In this document: piece by piece, positions 1,193 to 38,329 of the stretch | Numbering within the stretch: the first letter of the stretch is position 1 | How the letters are laid out: each line of letters begins with the position of its first letter | Assembly: GCA_964424305.1 (NCBI GenBank) | Contig: CAYRHW010000001.1 | Coordinates: forward strand, 7,947-71,946 | Origin: an uncultured Candidatus Saccharibacteria bacterium | GTDB taxonomy: Bacteria > Patescibacteriota > Minisyncoccia > Minisyncoccales > Staskawiczbacteraceae | Length of the DNA: 64,000 nucleotides | Direction: 5' to 3' | Made by a program: the position numbers and the translations under genes | Notes under the pieces: generated by a model | What the model saw: the letters and a program-made list of their open reading frames with translations, nothing else | The model's database searches: none | What the model was told of the DNA's origin: nothing

Positions 1193-1513
1193 TTAATTGG
1201 GGCGACGAGAAGATGCCAGTCGCACATGGCGATCGACGAAAGGTACCGGGGCATTCACCCCAGACTTCTTGCGTCGACGCTGCTGCATCTCAATCCTGAC
1301 GAGGATCCTCCCCATCGCTTTGGGGCTGATCTTCACGCCGAACCTCGTGGCGAAATCCCGCGCGAACTGCTCCACCGCCTTCGGGTTTCCCAAGTTGGGC
1401 CGCTTTGCCCCCAGAATTGAGCCCTTTTGCTCCTGGCTCATGTGGCCCCAGGAGTAAATGGCCGGGATAGCGGGTTGGGAAGACGTGGTTGAAAGGCTCA
1501 CATCTGTCGTCAT
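1193..1513 (-). CDS. hypothetical protein (GC-rich orphan)
   Basis: ORF in a locally GC-rich patch with AAAGGA 6 nt upstream of ATG 1513. No domain recognised. Overlapping alternative-frame ORFs make the frame choice uncertain. Confidence 0.35.
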   Translation of the reverse strand: MTTDVSLSTTSSQPAIPAIYSWGHMSQEQKGSILGAKRPNLGNPKAVEQFARDFATRFGVKISPKAMGRILVRIEMQQRRRKKSGVNAPVPFVDRHVRLASSRRPN

Positions 1514-1715
1514 CACAAATCCTTTCGCTAATGAACCACAGGTCGATTTATGCTACACGGGCACAACCGAACAGCTTTTTGTTCGATTTATTACTCCCTT
1601 CTACCCAGATGGGTTGTAAAGGTTCCACCCTTAAACCATTTAATATATTATAGCATATGATACGGATAGTCAATTCAAGTGTGATTTATTCACAATGATA
1701 TGATATATTAAAATC

Positions 1716-9933: not shown

Positions 9934-10024
9934 ATTATTTTCCCTAATAATAGCATTTCTTTTTTTAATTTATAAGTATTTCCATATTTTGCAAGCTTGA
10001 GGTGGTTAAAATCTTTAAAATAAA

Positions 10025-10042
10025 CCCGCCGAGTTGGGCGGG
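10025..10042 (-). terminator. hairpin plus T-run immediately 3' of TR1 (minus-strand sense)
   Basis: Minus-strand CCCGCC-caactc-GGCGGG followed by TTTATTTT. A homologous hairpin follows TR2 at 33249-33266. Confidence 0.5.
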
Positions 10043-28141: not shown

Positions 28142-28906
28142 TTATATCAAAATTTTCTCTCTTCTTAAATCTTCGGTTGATAAATGAATTGATAAAAGAT
28201 GGAAATAGTAATCATCCGATATCTCTCGTAGCAGCTTCCCCGATGATATTGGGATTTTTAATTTAGACAATGTTTTAAAATCCTTCTTTAAAATTAATCT
28301 TAATACCTTAACAATATCCGTGTTTATCCTCTTACAAAACCCCGCACCCTTAACACACTGGCCACAGACTAATCCAGCTCCATCTGGAGAAAAATATATA
28401 ATATTGGGCACTAAACTATTTTGGCAAACAACACATTTATGAACCTCTGGCTTATACCCCAGAATATTAAACAGGTTCCAAATGAAATAGAAATATATCA
28501 TTTGTACCTGTAGCGGGGTAAGGCTAACTTCGTCTAATCTATCGTAAGAATCTTTTAATAGATTGTAAATTTCGTCGTCCTTCTCTTCTTTTGAAACCAA
28601 CCCATTGGCCACATCTGCTATTCTATGCGCCACCTTTAATCTAGGGAGGTCGGCTTTCAAATTACTGTAACAGTTCAATGGTTCCGCATCGGTTAAAGTT
28701 TTCTGGGCCCTACCCTGGATAAATTCAATTTCGGAAAGACCAATTAGATTAATACCACTCCTAAGTTTTGAGGTAATTTTTCTTATCGCCCTGCCCAAAA
28801 TTCTAATCTTTCCAAAATCTTCTGATAATACGGTAAAGACTCTGTCCGTTTCACCGGCATCTGTTTTCTTAATAACAAGCCCACGTGTCTTATAATGGAG
28901 AGCCAT
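28142..28906 (-). CDS. recO: DNA repair protein RecO
   Basis: OB-fold N-terminus (TRGLVIKKTDAGETDRVFTVLSEDFGKI) and a CxxC...CxxC zinc motif. Confidence 0.85.
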   Translation of the reverse strand: MALHYKTRGLVIKKTDAGETDRVFTVLSEDFGKIRILGRAIRKITSKLRSGINLIGLSEIEFIQGRAQKTLTDAEPLNCYSNLKADLPRLKVAHRIADVANGLVSKEEKDDEIYNLLKDSYDRLDEVSLTPLQVQMIYFYFIWNLFNILGYKPEVHKCVVCQNSLVPNIIYFSPDGAGLVCGQCVKGAGFCKRINTDIVKVLRLILKKDFKTLSKLKIPISSGKLLREISDDYYFHLLSIHLSTEDLRREKILI

Positions 28907-31788
28907 TATTTCTTAATACCTACGTGGTATTCTTTACCGTCAAACTTATATGCCTTCTTAACATCACCCACTATCTCTGCCTCACTGGCAACCTGTTCAA
29001 AATATTTAGAGCCGATATCTTTAATTAGCTCTTCTTCATTAAACACTACATTTGCGGTAGACGTTATCCCCTGGACGATAGATCCAGAAACTAATCCCAA
29101 CTCTTTCCTTAGGCTTCTAACGGTTCGTATAAATTCTCTTCTCTCTCCCTCTTTCTTCAGTTCATCTGTTAGCTCTACATTCAACTCGATGTCTTTTGCC
29201 AACTTATCGTCAAAAACTATTTCTCTAACATTGGCCTCTTCTTTTAATATCTCCAATAATTCCTTTTCCTTGCTTAACTCATTACTTTTTACCTTTAACT
29301 GGGATAGGGGTTGCCTTACCTTAATGCCCAGAAGAGTCCTTTCTGCTAATACTAAATTTACTAGGTTCCTCAATTTACCCATACTACCCTCTAGGTCATT
29401 ATCTATTTTCTTTTTATCTACTTCTGGCCAATCTGTTAGATGGACGGATTCTGGCATATCTGGAGTTTTCAAAACTTGGTAAATTTCTTCTGCAAAAAAC
29501 GGCATCACCGGACCCATGATCTTAACTAGATTTAGAAGTATGTAATAGAATGTTTTAATTGCCTGATCCCTGTCCTCGCCCATTTCATGGAATCTCGCCC
29601 TTGATCGCCTGACATACCACAGAGATAAATCTGTTATGAAGAATTCTTCAATTGCATTTACCCCAGTAGCTGGGTTAAAGTTTTCAAAGCTTTCCTCAAC
29701 TTTCTTAACCAAATTGTTAAATTTTGAAATAATCCATTTGTCTAGGGTATTTGCAGGAGATAATTTTAAATCATTGGGGAATTCTTCTTTCTTTACATAG
29801 GTAGTAAAGAATACAAAAGTATTATACAGCGTTAAAAGTCTTCTTTTAACTTCTTCTGCATTAATATATCCAAACTTTAAATTATCCGCTGGATTCTGTT
29901 TGGCATACATCCACCTCATTGGGTCAGCCCCAATTTTTTCTACAGCTTCGTCGAACCAGACAGCATTCCCCTTAGACTTATGCATTTCTTCCCCCTTTTC
30001 ATCACGAACCGAAGCATAGCCGAAGATATTCTTAACTGGTGGTTTTTTCTCCAGAACCACACTCATTACGATAATGGAATAAAACCAGTTTTTAAATTGC
30101 CCAGGGAAGGATTCACAAACCAGTTCAACTGGGAACCACTTTGCCCAGTACTTCTTATCGCTGTCATATTTCATCGTCGAAAAGGGAACAATCCCGGCGT
30201 CTAACCATGGGTTACCGACATCGGGAATTCTAGATACAACTTCGCCACATTTAGAACATTTAATCTTTACTTTATCTGCCCAAGGTTTATGGGGGGATTT
30301 GCCTTCAAATTCATCCCAACCAGAAACTGCACGTTCCTTTAATTCCTCCTTCGAGCCTATAACCTCGAAGTTTCCACACTTACATTCAAATATTGGCAGA
30401 ACTAAACCCCAGTATCTTTTCTTAGAGATTAACCAGTCGTGCATATTCTTAAGCCAATCTAGTTCTCTCTCTTTACCAAAGTCTGGTATCCAGTTAATTT
30501 CTTTAGTAGCCTCCATTAAGGGTTTTCTCAACTTATCCATTGATATGTACCATTCATCAACAACTCGCCAAACTAATTCAGTCTTGCATCTCCAGCAGGT
30601 AGGATAACGATGGGTATAGTCTTCTATTTTAAACAGAAACTGTCCGGCCTTGTAGCTAGAAAGATAATCGAAGATTAATTCTGGGTTCTTCTTTGCGCTC
30701 TTCCCAGACAGATCATCCATTCCATCAAGATAAACTGCTGCTTCATCGATCACATCAATTACTGCCAGATTCTCTTCCTTCCCCACCTTAAAGTCTTCCT
30801 CCCCAGCACCGGGAGCGATATGGATAATGCCAGTACCCTCTAGGGCTGTTACTAAGTCCTTGTCCAAAACAACTGTATGAAAAGTTTTTTCATTTTCTTC
30901 TTCCGCTTTTACGGTTCGTGGTAGATTATCAAATGGGCCTTCATACTTTAGTCCTTTTAATTCTTTACCTAGAAGCTTCTTTTCTAAGACAAACTCCTTA
31001 CCAACAACCTTCTCGGCCAAATCTTTTAATAGGACAAATTTATCTTTTCCATTACTAAAAATTCCGTACTCCAATTCGGGATTAACCGCCAGGGCAACAT
31101 TGGCCGGGATTGTCCATGGGGTAGTAGTCCAAACTAGGAAGTTAACGCCCTGAAATTCTTTATCTGAAATTGGCAGCTTAAAGTAGATTGCCTTATGGAT
31201 TATCTCTTTATACTCTTCGGTTAAAATCTCGTGTTGAGAAATGGCCGTGCCACATCTTGGGCACCAAGGCACGCTGTCTCTTCCTTTATATAAATACCCT
31301 TTTTCATAGCATTTCTTTAAAAACCCCCAAATGGCGTAGTTATTCTCATCTGACATTGTGTAGTAAGAATTATCCCAATCCATCCACTGGCCCAACCTGA
31401 TTGATTGCTGGGTTTGAATGGCCGAATACTTATTTACCCTTTCCTTGCATTTCTCGACGAACCTATCTACTCCGTACACTTCAATATCTTTCTTACTTTT
31501 AAAACCTAACTCCTTTTCAACCTCCACCTCGACCCAAAGACCTTGGCAATCAAATCCATTCTGGTACCTTTGATCTCTCCCCTTCATTGCAAAGAATCTC
31601 TGGAATAGGTCTTTGTATGTTCTTCCCCAGGCGTGATGCACTCCCATGGGATTATTGGCAGTGATCGGTCCATCTAAAAACGACCAAGGCTTGCCATCCT
31701 TGTTTTTTTCTCGAAGTTTATTGAAAACACCGTTCTCCTGCCAGAACCTCAGTATTTTATTCTCTATCTCTGGAAAATTTAACTCCAT
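28906..31788 (-). CDS. ileS: isoleucyl-tRNA synthetase
   Basis: 960 aa. HIGH-type (MGVHHAWG) and KMSKS-like (HKSKGN) motifs with an editing-domain insertion. Confidence 0.95.
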   Translation of the reverse strand: MELNFPEIENKILRFWQENGVFNKLREKNKDGKPWSFLDGPITANNPMGVHHAWGRTYKDLFQRFFAMKGRDQRYQNGFDCQGLWVEVEVEKELGFKSKKDIEVYGVDRFVEKCKERVNKYSAIQTQQSIRLGQWMDWDNSYYTMSDENNYAIWGFLKKCYEKGYLYKGRDSVPWCPRCGTAISQHEILTEEYKEIIHKAIYFKLPISDKEFQGVNFLVWTTTPWTIPANVALAVNPELEYGIFSNGKDKFVLLKDLAEKVVGKEFVLEKKLLGKELKGLKYEGPFDNLPRTVKAEEENEKTFHTVVLDKDLVTALEGTGIIHIAPGAGEEDFKVGKEENLAVIDVIDEAAVYLDGMDDLSGKSAKKNPELIFDYLSSYKAGQFLFKIEDYTHRYPTCWRCKTELVWRVVDEWYISMDKLRKPLMEATKEINWIPDFGKERELDWLKNMHDWLISKKRYWGLVLPIFECKCGNFEVIGSKEELKERAVSGWDEFEGKSPHKPWADKVKIKCSKCGEVVSRIPDVGNPWLDAGIVPFSTMKYDSDKKYWAKWFPVELVCESFPGQFKNWFYSIIVMSVVLEKKPPVKNIFGYASVRDEKGEEMHKSKGNAVWFDEAVEKIGADPMRWMYAKQNPADNLKFGYINAEEVKRRLLTLYNTFVFFTTYVKKEEFPNDLKLSPANTLDKWIISKFNNLVKKVEESFENFNPATGVNAIEEFFITDLSLWYVRRSRARFHEMGEDRDQAIKTFYYILLNLVKIMGPVMPFFAEEIYQVLKTPDMPESVHLTDWPEVDKKKIDNDLEGSMGKLRNLVNLVLAERTLLGIKVRQPLSQLKVKSNELSKEKELLEILKEEANVREIVFDDKLAKDIELNVELTDELKKEGERREFIRTVRSLRKELGLVSGSIVQGITSTANVVFNEEELIKDIGSKYFEQVASEAEIVGDVKKAYKFDGKEYHVGIKK

Positions 31789-31856: not shown

Positions 31857-32873
31857 TCACCCTACAATATTGCCTTCATTCCCGGTGTATGATTTAAAAA
31901 CCTTATCTTTAATTTTTTCCGTATTCCCGTGGCTTAACATGCCGATATATGAATTCAAGGTTTCCAGATCGTTATTTCCCACTCTTTTAAACATTCTACT
32001 TTTAGTCTTGCCCCTTATAACCCTATGGTCTGGGAAGTTAACCCAACCCAAAAAGTCCACTCCGGAACACAAGGTCTTAATAAAAACCTTACCTGGGTGT
32101 AGCGCGAGATTTAATTCATCTTTTAGAAAGTCTGCGATAAGCAAAACTTTTCCTTTTAGATAATTCTCGTGCCCTGATAAAATTACAAAATCATCTGCAT
32201 ATCTAATGTAGTGCCTTACTTTTAATTTATGTTTCACGAACTGATCAAATTCGTTCATATATATGTTCGCAAACAATTGAGACGTCAGGTTGCCCAAAGG
32301 CAAACCAAACCCTGGTTTTATATACTGAAAACTTGTTATTATCTCTTTTAAAAGACCCGCAATGTCCTTATCTGGTATGTATTTTTGTAAAATTTCTAAT
32401 AATATATGCTGGTCGATTGAATAAAAAAACTTTTTGATATCGCCCTTTAAAACCCAGCAAGTCTTAGTATTATTTTTTGAAACGCTATGAGCAAGGCCCC
32501 TGAACCTATCAATCGCCCTATGGGTTCCCTTCTCATCACGGCAAGAGAAGGAATCCGATATAAAGGTTCTGTCAAAAAATGGATACAATATTCTATACAC
32601 TGCGCGATGCAAAAGCCTATCTCTAACACTTGCCTTATGGATAATTCTTGATTTCGGGTCACAAATATTAAATTCTTGGTACCCTCCGTGTTTGTATGTA
32701 TAATTAGACAATTCACAATTAAGTAATAAAATGTTATCCATTAGGTGAGAATTAAATTCCTGGACATCTTTTTTATTTCGTTTACCTAAAATAAACTCTT
32801 GCCATGCTTCAAGTAAATTATCAACACTAATTATATCTTCAAATTTATGACTCAGCTTAATTCTCATAATCAA
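31857..32873 (-). CDS. DGR reverse transcriptase
   Basis: RT motifs including YADDFVIL and the DGR-type motif-4 signature LPLGNLTSQLFANIYM (I/LGxxxSQ). Adjacent to Avd and a TR/VR pair. Confidence 0.9.
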   Translation of the reverse strand: MIMRIKLSHKFEDIISVDNLLEAWQEFILGKRNKKDVQEFNSHLMDNILLLNCELSNYTYKHGGYQEFNICDPKSRIIHKASVRDRLLHRAVYRILYPFFDRTFISDSFSCRDEKGTHRAIDRFRGLAHSVSKNNTKTCWVLKGDIKKFFYSIDQHILLEILQKYIPDKDIAGLLKEIITSFQYIKPGFGLPLGNLTSQLFANIYMNEFDQFVKHKLKVRHYIRYADDFVILSGHENYLKGKVLLIADFLKDELNLALHPGKVFIKTLCSGVDFLGWVNFPDHRVIRGKTKSRMFKRVGNNDLETLNSYIGMLSHGNTEKIKDKVFKSYTGNEGNIVG

Positions 32874-32916: not shown

Positions 32917-33246
32917 TTGAGCATAATTCAAAAGCTGACCCAGGTTTATAAACTATGGCAGGAGTATTTACTTGATTTCCCAAAAACCTCTCGTTATACG
33001 TTGGGCCAAAAGATTGATTCTTCGTTTTTAGAAACCATGGAGAATATAATGAAAGCAGGATATTCAGGTAAAGTTGAAAAGCAAATTTTCCTTAAAAGAT
33101 CCTCCGTTAAGCTCGACCTCCTCAAATTTTTTCTGCAAATTTCCTGGGAGATAGGGTCTTTGAATAATAAAAAATACACAAACCTCTCTGAAAAGCTGGA
33201 CGAAGTTGGAAAAATGCTGGGAGGATGGATTAAATCTTTAAAATAA
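32917..33246 (+). CDS. avd: DGR accessory variability determinant (Avd), four-helix-bundle family
   Basis: YKLWQEYLLDFPKTSRYTLGQKI...LDEVGKMLGGWIKSLK matches remembered Avd / 23S-rRNA-IVS-protein family patterns. TTG start. Opposite strand to the RT, TRs and targets. Confidence 0.8.
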   Translation: MSIIQKLTQVYKLWQEYLLDFPKTSRYTLGQKIDSSFLETMENIMKAGYSGKVEKQIFLKRSSVKLDLLKFFLQISWEIGSLNNKKYTNLSEKLDEVGKMLGGWIKSLK

Positions 33247-33248
33247 AA

Positions 33249-33266
33249 CCCATCCTAAAAGACGGG
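33249..33266 (-). terminator. hairpin plus T-run immediately 3' of TR2 (minus-strand sense), abutting the avd stop codon
   Basis: Minus-strand CCCGTC-ttttag-GATGGG, with a G-U pair on the minus-strand RNA and an A-C mismatch on the plus strand, followed by TTTTATTTT. Confidence 0.45.
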
Positions 33267-33280
33267 AAAAACGAAGAGAG

Positions 33281-33417
33281 TTGCGAGGGAGAACAAACAC
33301 GAAGTGATTGTAGCCATTCCAGACATTGTCGGGATTGTCGTAGTTGCTGTTGAGCCACAGACCGTCATCGTTGTGCTTCACGTTGAACAGCTTGAGGTTG
33401 CCATCCGAATCGGTAAT
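33281..33417 (-). repeat. DGR template repeat TR2 (137 nt)
   Basis: Gap-free alignment to 33777-33913. There are 22 mismatches, all at plus-strand T (coding-strand A) of this copy. It encodes ITDSDGNLKLFNVKHNDDGLWLNSNYDNPDNVWNGYNHFVFVLPRK. Confidence 0.9.
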
Positions 33418-33433
33418 GCGTAAAGCGTCATCT

Positions 33434-33776
33434 ATACCACCACCCTTCGAATACTCTCCGGGCTGAATCTTATTCGGTATCTAAACATACCCTAACGCCT
33501 TACACCAAGTATCTTCATTTTTTAATAATCAGGGATGACTCTCTTGAAAGGCATGCCCGCCAAGAATCTGCATACACCTGAGATATAGAATTCGGCCACC
33601 TGAAGCCTTAACCGCAGATTTATTAGCCTACTATCCGACTTAATGTTATCACATATATTTTAAAACCCCTCTCTGCGCGCTGCGTAGAGAGGGGTTTTAC
33701 TGTTCAGGGTTCCAAGAAACCAAGGGTTCAAGAAAGAACCAGAGTTCCAAGGGACCAAGGACAGTTTGAAGATTAC
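33434..33776 (-). repeat. 343-bp VR-to-TR spacer, copy 2 (identical to 10207-10549)
   Basis: Identical by eye to copy 1. The terminator hairpin is at 33666-33694. Confidence 0.85.
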
Positions 33777-34363
33777 TTGCGAGGGAGAACAAACACGAAG
33801 TGAGGGCAGCCACCCCAGACATAGTCGGGATGGGCGTAGTGGCCGTCGAGCCACAGACCGTCACCGCGGCGCTCCACGCGGAACAGCCCGAGGGTGCCAT
33901 CCGAAGCGGTAATCGGCTCCATGCCAATCACCAACCACTCTCCCTTGGGCTGGGCCCTGTAGGCCAGGCGGAGCTGGGGGCCGACCTCGGCGGGACAGAG
34001 CTGGAGGCCACGTGATTTGGCACTGGCGTAGATGTCCTCTCTCTTGGCTCCATCCTTGAAGCCGAGGTCGGCGGGGGTGAGAACGACGAGGTCCAACATG
34101 GTGGCCTCGGGGGCCACCGTGAAGGCGGGTTGCCCGAGGATGTTGTCGGCCCACTCGCTGATCTTCATTCCGCCATCCATGAGGGCCAGGCGGAAATCTT
34201 CGGCGGTCTTGGGGCCGGTGCCCAACTTCACGGTCTTGAAGACCTTGAAGTCGGGCTCCCGGACCACGAGCTCACCTGCCAAGAAACGACGGATACCTTC
34301 CGGCCCTCCAAGCTTGTTACCGATTGCTTCAATCTGTCCCAGAGTTAAGTCGCCATACTTCAT
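33773..34363 (-). CDS. DGR variable protein 2
   Basis: Very GC-rich ORF (hand-counted lines at 68-73%). The likely start is MKYGDLTLGQ at 34363 with an AAAGGA SD; the ORF track extends to 34402. VR2 sits at the C-terminus. No signal peptide is visible. Confidence 0.85.
   Translation of the reverse strand: MKYGDLTLGQIEAIGNKLGGPEGIRRFLAGELVVREPDFKVFKTVKLGTGPKTAEDFRLALMDGGMKISEWADNILGQPAFTVAPEATMLDLVVLTPADLGFKDGAKREDIYASAKSRGLQLCPAEVGPQLRLAYRAQPKGEWLVIGMEPITASDGTLGLFRVERRGDGLWLDGHYAHPDYVWGGCPHFVFVLPRK
33777..33913 (-). repeat. DGR variable repeat VR2 (last 45 codons of target 2)
   Basis: Diversified copy of TR2, encoding ITASDGTLGLFRVERRGDGLWLDGHYAHPDYVWGGCPHFVFVLPRK. Confidence 0.9.
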
Positions 34364-34532: not shown

Positions 34533-34562
34533 ATTATACCATACATGTCCAGGCTCTGTCAA
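34533..34562 (-). promoter_or_regulatory. consensus sigma70 promoter for target 2 (TTGACA-N18-TATAAT, with TGg extended -10)
   Basis: On the minus strand, -35 is at 34562-34557 and -10 at 34538-34533. Confidence 0.6.
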
Positions 34563-36997: not shown

Positions 36998-37097
36998 CTA
37001 TCTAATATGGTATAGTTAAAGTGTCTTAGGTAAGGTACTTGAGACGACAAAGTTCTTTCTTTTAACCCTTTTTTTGAAAAAGGGAAGGAGCCCTATT

Positions 37098-37310
37098 ATG
37101 ATGACTTACCGACCCGTCGTTACCCCCACCCAGAGGGCGGCCCATTTCCAGGACCTCGCCGAACACCGCTTCGAGGAAGCCGTGATCGCCGAACAGCGAG
37201 GAAACCAGGCAATGGCCCACGAGTTTCTGCACATGGCGGAGGAGTTCGAAGCCAAGGCCACGGTGGCCATGGGCAAGAGGTACTCCTCCGCAAGCGCCAT
37301 GAGCGCATGA
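37098..37310 (+). CDS. small helical hypothetical protein (GC-rich orphan, about 70 aa)
   Basis: GGAAGGAG SD 7 nt before ATG 37098. Terminator AAGAGCCC-13 nt-GGGCTCTT plus T-run at about 37333-37367. Confidence 0.45.
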   Translation: MMTYRPVVTPTQRAAHFQDLAEHRFEEAVIAEQRGNQAMAHEFLHMAEEFEAKATVAMGKRYSSASAMSA

Positions 37311-37530
37311 GGGGAAGCGTCCCCGACAAACAAGAGCCCGACGCGCAAGCTAGGGCTCTTCACTTTTATATCAAACTCCTATGAAAAACCAAATTCAATA
37401 CATACTAGCAATATTGCCAACACTCCAAGATTCGTTTAAGATAGCAACGATTGGTTTTGTTTTAGCCAAAAGACTAACTCCAACAATATTGAGTTTAATT
37501 CTTTTCGTTAAAATCTGATAGAATAAACAT

Positions 37531-37977
37531 ATGAAAGTCTTTTCTGAAAATAAAAAGGCAACATTTAACTACCAAATCCTAGAGAAATTCGAGTCTGGGC
37601 TGATTTTGAATGGCCAAGAAGTGAAGTCCATAAGGCTAGGGAGAATGAGCCTTGATGGCTCCTATGTTGTTTTAAATGGATTAGAACCGAACTTGATAGG
37701 CTCAAAAGTTCCAGCCTACCAACCCAAGAATGCACCAGCTGGCTACGACCCAGAGAGATCAAGAAAATTATTGTTAAAAAGGGCTGAAATCGAATATTTA
37801 ATCGGAAAAACCCACCAAAAAGGCTTGACTTTAGTGCCATTGAGAGTTTATAGTAATTATGCTAAGATTAAACTCGAATTCGGATTAGCCAAAGGAAAAA
37901 AGAAATATGACAAGAGAGAAGATTTAAAAAAGAGAGAAACCCACAGAGAAATGGCTAGAGAGTTCGGGAAAGTCTAA
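37531..37977 (+). CDS. smpB: SsrA-binding protein
   Basis: KKATFNYQILEKFESGLILNGQEVKSIR is typical of SmpB, and tmRNA lies immediately downstream. Confidence 0.9.
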   Translation: MKVFSENKKATFNYQILEKFESGLILNGQEVKSIRLGRMSLDGSYVVLNGLEPNLIGSKVPAYQPKNAPAGYDPERSRKLLLKRAEIEYLIGKTHQKGLTLVPLRVYSNYAKIKLEFGLAKGKKKYDKREDLKKRETHREMAREFGKV

Positions 37978-37980
37978 CAT

Positions 37981-38329
37981 GGGGGCGAATTGTTTCGACA
38001 AAAGATCTTTCACAAAATAAGCAAACCGAGTCCTCTTAAACCTCGTAAAACTTTAAGAAAACTAATAAGTGTCAACTTATTTAACAGACAACCAGCATTA
38101 GCATACGCTTAGTGCTCATCCTTCCTATCAATTCCTAATAGATAGATAAGGGTGTCATATTTTTAGGATATCTAGCTTTAGGTTCCGGAAAGCCAGAGAA
38201 ATGAAGGAACTAAGGATATTAAAGTTTTGTCTACTTTCTATTTAATATTCGATAATTAAAGTAGTCTAAGTTTGTAGAATTATTTTGTAAAACCTTTTGG
38301 ACGAGGGTTCGATCCCTCCGCTTCCACTA
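37981..38329 (+). ncRNA. ssrA: tmRNA (ssrA)
   Basis: 5' GGGGGCGAATTGTTTCGACA and 3' GGACGAGGGTTCGATCCCTCCGCTTCCA tRNA-like ends. Internal tag frame ...NRQPALAYA-stop. The terminal CCA is not encoded (CTA). Confidence 0.85.

Follow-up and report, generated by a model that had tools for sequence, protein, structure and literature searches.

GC-rich variable proteins of a Patescibacteria diversity-generating retroelement, with a probable C-type-lectin-like scaffold and a predicted RNA junction beside the template repeat

Background

A 64,000-nucleotide stretch of bacterial DNA (hereafter, the window) carries two short genes, here called T2 and T1, that appear to encode the variable proteins of a diversity-generating retroelement (DGR), and it raises the question of what kind of element these genes belong to, what scaffold carries their variable residues, where in the cell the proteins act, and why their open reading frames (ORFs) are so much richer in GC than the genes around them. 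The window is 40% GC and holds housekeeping genes including glyA, ileS, argS, smpB, and infC, which together with database matches point to Patescibacteria, the candidate phyla radiation (CPR), as the source genome. A sequence-only reading of the locus had proposed that the two proteins share a compact C-terminal scaffold of the C-type-lectin type, that they show no obvious secretion signal, and that their genes are strongly GC-rich.

The DGRs of CPR bacteria are known mainly from genome surveys: in the "CPR set" compiled by Wu et al. 2018, 90% show the "B3" arrangement of avd and template repeat (PMC5758913), and the corresponding group in Roux et al. 2021 is "clade 2" (PMC8144416). How such variable regions of the CPR fold was left open in the former study (PMC5758913), and the latter reported that clade-2 targets are without transmembrane segments or signal peptides and left their non-membrane status open (PMC8144416). 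Here, we describe the two targets and their element, weigh the case for a shared scaffold and for a cellular location, and report a compositional property of the target ORFs and a conserved RNA element that recur across related genomes.

Results and discussion

Two target genes and a single reverse transcriptase

T1 and T2 are true DGR targets, with their diversified residues in the last ~45 codons. Each gene ends in a variable region (VR) that is matched by a template repeat (TR) nearby, and the window also holds avd and a reverse transcriptase (RT) gene:

33773–34363, minus strand: T2, DGR variable protein gene (N-terminal helix-GG-helix module at residues ~1–38, then a probable C-type-lectin-like core)
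33777–33913, minus strand: VR2, codons 151–195 of T2's 196, a direct repeat with TR2 (84% identical)
33281–33417, minus strand: TR2, template for VR2, with 35 adenines
10546–11157, minus strand: T1, DGR variable protein gene (hydrophobic N-terminal helix, helical module, then a probable C-type-lectin-like core)
10550–10681, minus strand: VR1, codons 160–202 of T1's 203, a direct repeat with TR1 (86% identical)
10057–10188, minus strand: TR1, template for VR1, with 28 adenines
32917–33246, plus strand: avd, DGR accessory protein, on the strand opposite to TR, RT, and targets
31857–32873, minus strand: DGR reverse transcriptase, the sole RT of the window

The pattern of mismatches between repeats carries this assignment. 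A repeat search gave TR/VR lengths of 132–137 nt, with 22 differences between VR2 and TR2 and 18 between VR1 and TR1, every one of which falls at a template adenine (22/22 and 18/18); the adenines themselves lie in 24 codons of TR2 and 19 of TR1. The same footprint recurs across 39 related loci, where 646 of 679 TR/VR mismatches are at template adenines, the changes being A to G in 60%, A to C in 19%, and A to T in 20% of these 646. Changes to T appeared scarce in the window's own two VRs (4/40), but we dropped this scarcity as a family trait given the 20% found across the related loci. A GC-rich end (GTTCTCCCTCGCAA) is common to VR and TR, which differ from the next base on.

Both proteins belong to large families. 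T2 (196 aa) begins MKYGDLTLGQIEAIGNKLGG and ends ...YVWGGCPHFVFVLPRK, with a start at MKY that is common to most of 48 aligned homologues (a few have longer N-termini), and all of its 739 homologues are without a Pfam domain. T1 (203 aa) ends ...HVWGGHCRFVALRK and contains both GFRPATIEELLALGASYPELQKQFPILALGS and SVIVAGAGLVASIFTMLV; a word-indexed search returned 147 homologues, and the T1-family profile matches 8170 cluster representatives. The machinery is readily recognized, with avd matched by Pfam bAvd (6.5e-17, 62.4 bits, cutoff 40), NCBIfam DivGenRetAVD (80.9 bits, cutoff 80), and the PHROG "Avd protein of DGR" (8.5e-20), and the RT by RVT_1 (2.9e-23) and phrog_1423 (reverse transcriptase; 7.9e-99). 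The RT translation contains LGNLTSQ, which we take to fit the DGR-type motif [ILV]GxxxSQ.

By tblastn the RT is single-copy within the window, and the T1 cassette lies ~21 kb away from it, from which we infer that a single RT and a single Avd serve two cassettes, each with its own TR. In this scheme, read from the mutational footprint, RT and Avd would make cDNA from the TR with random bases opposite adenines, and the cDNA would then replace the VR. In related genomes the usual order for both target types is target, VR, ~360 nt, TR, avd (on the opposite strand), and RT, with avd ~540 nt and the RT ~900 nt past the target end; among loci that carry an RT, 25 of 28 of T2 type and 9 of 12 of T1 type conform to this layout. 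In roughly half of the related loci, and likewise in cassette 1, an RT is absent from the surrounding 8 kb, and a search around the targets gave no conserved partner other than RT and avd.

This layout is like that of described CPR DGRs in its Patescibacteria host, in an avd located between TR and RT on the opposite strand, and in its short targets with a C-terminal VR and without a recognizable domain, transmembrane segment, or signal peptide; unlike that comparison set, one RT here accompanies two cassettes, each with its own TR. Host and architecture would place the RT in CPR clade 2. We put at roughly 70% the reading that a single chromosomal DGR, of the sort typical for Patescibacteria (CPR), has T1 and T2 as its two variable proteins; the element is of the ordinary CPR type, and its targets come from large unannotated families. 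Counting somewhat against this reading, just one near-identical copy of T1 exists in the database (P0121), and its VR is identical. The two copies are set apart by a two-residue deletion (AG) within the N-terminal hydrophobic helix.

Two further observations concern the surroundings of RT and T2. ileS (28906–31788) adjoins the RT in the window, and 14 other loci likewise have an ileS-like gene no more than a few kb from the target or RT, a recurrent neighbourhood that suggests a conserved chromosomal position and vertical descent. Separately, a sigma-70-type promoter match (TTGACA, 18-nt spacer, TG, TATAAT; 12/12 consensus) lies at 34533–34562 on the minus strand; this pattern match, a predicted promoter ~170 nt upstream of the T2 start, would imply a long 5' leader.

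A probable shared scaffold with exchangeable N-terminal modules

Each protein, ~200 aa long, would combine a helical N-terminal module, which can be swapped, with an alpha/beta core of ~140 residues. AlphaFold (AF2) models reached a predicted local distance difference test score (pLDDT) of 89.3 for T2 and 89.7 for T1, and in both models the C-terminal ~140 residues run in the same order: strand, helix, strand, helix, helix, short strand, two long strands, and a final strand. The top matches of both models in the Protein Data Bank (PDB) are C-type lectin domains (Mincle, BDCA2, DCIR, NK receptors, LOX-1, and snake-venom lectins), several of the entries being the same or related for the two (3wbr_H, 4kzw_A, 7qaj, and DCIR). 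From these models we consider it probable that T1 and T2 share a C-type-lectin-like scaffold. The proposed sharing is borne out by the common order of secondary structure and the common PDB matches, if less strongly than had been claimed: the full-length family profiles align over 173 collinear columns at a marginal E of 3.8e-4 and 36% probability, BLASTP found no significant similarity between T1 and T2, and cross-family hmmsearch gave a few bits only, chimeras excepted.

The variable positions fall into this predicted scaffold in a regular way. Template codons AAC, AAT, and AAG alternate with invariant L, V, F, or W on the two late strands and occupy the loop that leads into the final strand, as in T1 strand 180–187, R-(N)-L-(N)-L-(N)-W, and T2 strand 158–166, L-(K)-L-F-(N)-V-(K)-(H)-(N), where parentheses mark variable residues. 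Family entropy is 2.8–3.5 bits at AAY template codons versus 0–0.4 bits at the interleaved L/W/F/V positions. Because variable and invariant residues alternate on predicted strands, the variable side chains would be placed on one exposed face, where they may form a ligand-binding site, and the adenine-bearing codons allow a theoretical repertoire of roughly 10^20 sequences for T2 and 10^16 for T1. Both proteins end W-x4-[HR]-F-V-hydrophobic-hydrophobic-...-R-K, as had been noticed at the outset, and the "N/G" and "D/G" alternatives recorded within that ending are TR-encoded versus VR-encoded residues.

The N-terminal modules behave as separate units. One relative (P0185) joins a T2-type N-terminus to a T1-type core and another (the L035 ORF, 7929–8603) a T1-type N-terminus to a T2-type core, so the modules are, judging from these chimeras, exchangeable between the two families in both directions. 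A BLAST chain leading from T1 through L090 and L035 to T2 passes through a chimera, and we discounted it as proof of core homology. In longer relatives (P0346, P0253, and P0241–P0245) the core (~140 residues) is present two or three times in tandem.

Sequence families offered no shortcut to the fold. Neither T1 nor T2 matched any family in Pfam, NCBIfam, or PHROGs; a PDB sequence-profile search gave no match for T2 and, for T1, weak matches to OspC3 and designed helical bundles over the N-terminal part only; and at E ≤ 10 Pfam assigned no lectin-type family to any of 99 family members, an SCP2_Rv3818 match in 5 of them being probably noise from the helical N-terminus. The lectin idea had come with a likeness of T1 to DUF1566 proteins. 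The RPATIEELLALG stretch on which it drew, like the hydrophobic segment also noted, is present in T1, but the family assignment found no support: none of 99 family members (50 + 49) matches DUF1566 (PF07603) or FGE-sulfatase (PF03781) at E ≤ 10, and T1 and T2 match neither at E ≤ 1. The T1-family consensus carries RPAxIEELLALG and CRFxAVRK, and T2 carries LCPAEVGPQLRL and HFVFVLPRK; the resemblance of RPATIEELLAL and CRFVALRK to RLPTxxEL and YVRCVR is a likeness by eye only.

Known variable proteins provide partial parallels. AvpA, the variable protein of a Nanoarchaeota DGR, could not be assigned by sequence and has a C-type-lectin fold by crystallography (PMC5006420); T1 and T2 resemble it as small variable proteins of an ultra-small symbiont lineage that are unassigned by sequence and have C-terminal variable residues, and they differ in having an extra N-terminal helical module and no detectable sequence similarity to it. 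They are likewise similar to Mtd (Bordetella phage BPP-1), TvpA (Treponema), and TaqVP (Thermus) in that AAC-type template codons near the C-terminus encode the variable residues and in a scaffold tolerant of massive variation. Those proteins, however, match FGE-sulfatase/DUF1566-type Pfam models or are larger, and mostly have known surface locations, whereas T1 and T2 match no such model and find their best structural matches among animal C-type lectin domains.

Several results weigh against the lectin-like scaffold, and they would fit a core that is a separate alpha/beta fold only loosely like a C-type lectin, with T1 and T2 sharing their N-terminal module and a short convergent C-terminal motif. 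Such convergence could follow from the DGR itself, since adenine-free codons restrict invariant residues to F, L, V, W, R, G, A, P, S, and C. The Foldseek matches are weak (E 0.009–0.1, every one above 0.001; template-modelling score 0.44–0.51 normalized by target and 0.3 by query; root-mean-square deviation 5–6 Å), none of Mtd, TvpA, TaqVP, and AvpA is among the top 50 for either model, and a Foldseek search of viral structures gave no useful match. Comparing core profiles with the N-terminal modules removed (hhalign) yields E 0.0045 and a probability of 8%, Pfam and the PDB hold no sequence match, and the BLAST chain between the proteins may rest on the N-terminal module. Against this separate fold, which we think unlikely, C-type lectin domains make up T2's top 18 matches and nearly all of T1's top 50, the matched entries are partly identical for both models with probabilities of up to 0.82 and 0.99, helices and strands follow the same order in both models, and the profile alignments stay collinear from the initial core helix to the last residue. 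The C-type-lectin-like scaffold thus stays our preferred model of the core.

Cellular location

To describe export potential we used a hydropathy scan, taking the best 19-residue Kyte-Doolittle window in the first 60 residues at a threshold of ≥1.6. T2 has no hydrophobic segment there (best window 0.48) and T1 has one (1.92, residues 7–25), both as described in the sequence-only reading. Across the families, 0 of 49 T2-family members and 16 of 50 T1-family members, T1 included, have such a helix. We lean, by a little, towards T2 being a soluble protein without a signal, and because of this acting in the cytoplasm or on the membrane's inner face; for T1, the N-terminal helix may provide a membrane tether.

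The opposite placement, in which T2 and T1 are displayed or released without a classical signal peptide and bind host-cell or phage surfaces, has somewhat less than even odds. Cellular DGR targets are mostly surface proteins (Roux 2021, PMC8144416), and several of our observations weigh against a cytoplasmic location: the N-terminal helix of T1 and the other members just counted reaches the classical transmembrane threshold; P0346 consists of a J domain, a membrane helix, and then two T1-type domains, which, placed as they are after a cytoplasmic J domain and the helix, should be outside the cell; and P0253 has a membrane helix before two core domains, although either orientation is possible. 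T2's 30-residue N-terminal module is, moreover, nearly invariant, as a docking or export tag might be. A surface route is harder to square with the complete lack of hydrophobic N-terminal segments in the T2 family, with the lack of any lipobox or cleavage motif seen, and with RT and avd being the sole conserved neighbours, so that there is no candidate for a dedicated exporter. A further point against it is that the equivalent helix bears acidic or basic residues in most T1-family members. In many it is amphipathic with charged residues, and the flanking charges of the T1 helix fit either orientation.

Cytoplasmic DGR targets have been proposed before, in multicellular bacteria, where they are described as putative antigen sensors in putative conflict systems (PMC10907252). 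T1 and T2 are like those targets in having diversified domains of C-type-lectin type (predicted here) and no export signals; they are themselves ~200 aa long and have no effector domain and no conserved partner gene. The absence of export signals in CPR DGR targets is already known (PMC8144416), and what is new here are the long relatives whose T1-type domains are preceded by a membrane helix.

A GC excess confined to the target ORFs

The GC contrast described at the outset is real, though smaller than stated. T2 is 62.1% GC with a third-position GC content (GC3) of 77%, and T1 is 56.2% GC with a GC3 of 67%; the 63–73% given earlier for the targets was somewhat overstated, and argS is 38% rather than about 33%. 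The RT (34%) and Avd (35%) genes are similarly low, and genome GC3 is about 0.39. The T1 and T2 ORFs form the widest GC islands of the window, with the highest peak in T2.

A check of codon usage extended this contrast to both families. We sampled 75 T2-family loci from species-representative genomes and 31 T1-family loci from metagenomes, and found GC3 to be 0.68 in the T2 family versus 0.42 in background ORFs (Wilcoxon p = 6e-14) and 0.60 in the T1 family versus 0.41 (p = 2e-7). The excess is present in 72 of the 75 and 28 of the 31 loci, in hosts of 30–60% GC, and target-gene GC tracks that of the host only weakly (slopes 0.24 and 0.56). A profile aligned on gene ends shows that the excess spans start codon to stop codon and peaks at the VR, with the flanks, including RT and avd, at or below background. 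Target GC3 (0.67) exceeds RT GC3 (0.40) in all 41 loci that hold both, and Avd GC3 averages 0.40. At four-fold sites A is the most depleted base (0.10–0.11 vs 0.22–0.23 in background ORFs) and C the most enriched (0.37–0.46, nearly doubled); third-position T is 0.11–0.18 in targets, and by eye TTC, GAC, and AAG are preferred. Between members of 40–70% protein identity, four-fold-site identity is 0.39–0.43 against 0.31 expected at saturation; synonymous sites are thus near-saturated, so that a recent shared ancestor does not explain the composition, which is instead being maintained. High GC is a lasting property of T1/T2-family target ORFs, not the mark of a recent transfer. We found no description of an ORF-confined GC excess of DGR targets in the literature searched.

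A GC3 of 0.67–0.77 in a genome of GC3 ~0.39 is a classical sign of foreign DNA, deviant GC served Wu et al. 2018 as evidence that DGRs had been transferred (PMC5758913), and the window holds two other small GC-rich ORFs (1193–1516 and 37074–37310), so that recent horizontal acquisition of the targets, or of the whole cassette, from a high-GC donor deserves to be weighed. We regard it as very improbable: a donor's signature would not be expected to recur across both families with so weak a dependence on host GC, to end where the target ORF ends, to spare the same element's RT and Avd in every locus compared, or to outlast near-saturation of synonymous sites, and the recurrent ileS neighbourhood suggests vertical descent.

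A force linked to the DGR itself, keeping the whole target ORF GC3-rich and adenine-poor, is a tentative alternative to which we give well under even odds. It might be selection against sense-strand adenines, limiting the harm of stray adenine mutagenesis, or a hot spot of recombination where repair or gene conversion is biased toward GC. The limitation of the excess to the target ORF with its maximum at the VR, the strong depletion of A and enrichment of C, the unaffected RT and Avd, and the persistence of the composition all speak for such a force. Yet T is also avoided, so that adenine avoidance alone is insufficient, and we rejected it as the sole cause. Third-position A steps at the VR boundary with no gradual fall toward the VR, and without a gradient in the non-VR part we likewise set aside a leaky-cDNA footprint; C far exceeds G at four-fold sites, which strand-symmetric biased conversion would not lead one to expect; and the excess is equal in T2-type genes with and without an adjacent TR, with no dependence on such a TR seen for them. 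High expression or translational selection was rejected as well, the third positions of infC, rpmI, and rplT being A-rich. A joint reading, with a retroelement-linked force on the whole target ORF in Patescibacteria DGRs and T2-type binders acting inside the cell, is unlikely.

The two small GC-rich ORFs mentioned above (1193–1516, minus strand, 106–107 aa, GC3 0.71; 37074–37310, plus strand, 70–78 aa, GC3 0.76) are flanked by AT-rich housekeeping genes. Neither matches Pfam or Rfam, each is a singleton in the protein collection, and the 159 fetched loci contain no relative of either. A GC island at 37051–37400 was considered as a possible tmRNA and rejected, as the tmRNA lies at 37981–38329; it follows smpB (smpB-tmRNA region 37531–38329) and encodes the tag peptide VNLFNRQPALAYA.

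A conserved RNA junction at the 5' edge of the template repeat

The spacers around the TRs contain a set of predicted RNA structures:

33418–33505, minus strand: three-way-junction RNA directly 5' of TR2 (P1 33505–33494/33429–33418; P2 33491–33488/33479–33476; P3 33463–33455/33450–33442)
10191–10289, minus strand: cassette-1 version of the 5' RNA element, identical to cassette 2 in its 5' part but with a P1 3' strand (10202–10191, GATATTCTGCGT) of a different type, so that P1 is weaker
33662–33698, minus strand: GC hairpin and T-run 75 nt past the T2 stop (AAAACCCCTCTCTACGCAGCGCGCAGAGAGGGGTTTT), with an identical copy past T1 at 10435–10471
33240–33266, minus strand: hairpin and U-tract 15 nt past TR2, beside the stop codon of the converging avd, a terminator-like site in a scan
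10017–10042, minus strand: hairpin and U-tract past TR1 (CCCGCCCAACTCGGCGGGTTTATTTT)

The fold of the 5' element comes from RNAalifold on 42 sequences from different species and is well supported by covariation: 96.4% of cells are paired, compensatory changes occur in 19 of 23 pairs, none of 500 shuffles was as good, and slid registers gave 29–54% paired. The outer stem P1 has 12 bp and ends 0–3 nt ahead of the first TR base. The VR-to-TR distance is conserved at ~495 nt, and the ~110 nt before the TR are 70–84% identical across species and both target types. No Rfam family matched the element at gathering score, nor did we find a mention of it in the literature searched. A shared 5' RNA would let a single RT-Avd pair use both templates, and the P1 stem may also mark the stop of cDNA synthesis.

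Downstream, the TR is followed by only ~50 nt, with a terminator-like hairpin; the hairpins at 33240–33266 and 10017–10042 are likely the 3' ends of the TR2 and TR1 RNAs, respectively, and the GC hairpin with its T-run at 33662–33698 is probably the terminator of the target gene. In BPP-1, a GC-rich initiation-of-mutagenic-homing (IMH) site and a nearby hairpin at the 3' end of the VR serve in target recognition; the strong hairpin seen here lies farther downstream than the one in BPP-1 and is terminator-like in look. Between stop codon and hairpin, 33700–33772 and 10473–10545 (minus strand) are an identical stretch with a repeated CTTGG (CCTTGGTCCCTTGGAACTCTGG...CCCTTGGTTTCTTGGAACCC), which is partly kept in some other loci.

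In BPP-1 the DGR RNA comprises 20 nt of avd, the TR, and a 140-nt Sp, with a "cPRT Stop" duplex, and flanking structured RNA is needed for RT-Avd, the essential RNA lying mostly 3' of the TR (bioRxiv 10.1101/2023.10.23.563531). The element described here is similar in placing a duplex against the 5' end of the TR, where BPP-1 cDNA synthesis ends, and in conserving structured RNA beside the TR. It differs in that the BPP-1 stop duplex pairs segments upstream and downstream of the TR, whereas the structure predicted here is a self-contained three-way junction 5' of the TR.

The two cassettes of the window are alike in much of this spacer. A repeat search found a 300-nt VR-TR block 97% identical between them, and the 349 nt past the T1 stop (10201–10549) are 99.4% identical to those past the T2 stop. 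When paired by hand, cassette-1 P1 contains 2 mismatches and 6 wobble pairs among its 12, its 3' strand being of T1-family type. It looks like the cassette-1 spacer was overwritten by the cassette-2 version up to the P1 3' strand in a recent gene conversion, and the imperfect P1 may leave TR1 working poorly, which counts against the reading favoured here.

Conclusions

DGR targets of the CPR are numerous, the T1-type profile alone reaching thousands of cluster representatives, and our analysis provides a model-based case for a C-type-lectin-like scaffold and a swappable N-terminal module in two families so far listed as "hypothetical". In composition, a target GC3 of about 0.67 whatever the host, not shared by RT and Avd, amounts to a reproducible rule that could serve as a practical marker or as a clue to a constraint on retrohoming. 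If a retroelement-linked force were indeed behind it, DGR targets in AT-rich genomes would be recognizable from composition alone, and DGR activity would reach past the TR-homologous segment. At the RNA level, a junction at the 5' edge of the TR suggests that RNA requirements are arranged otherwise than in the Bordetella phage model. Together, these results leave the basic picture of DGRs unchanged and single out two points worth following up: the GC excess, which is family-wide and confined to the target ORF, and the RNA junction 5' of the TR.

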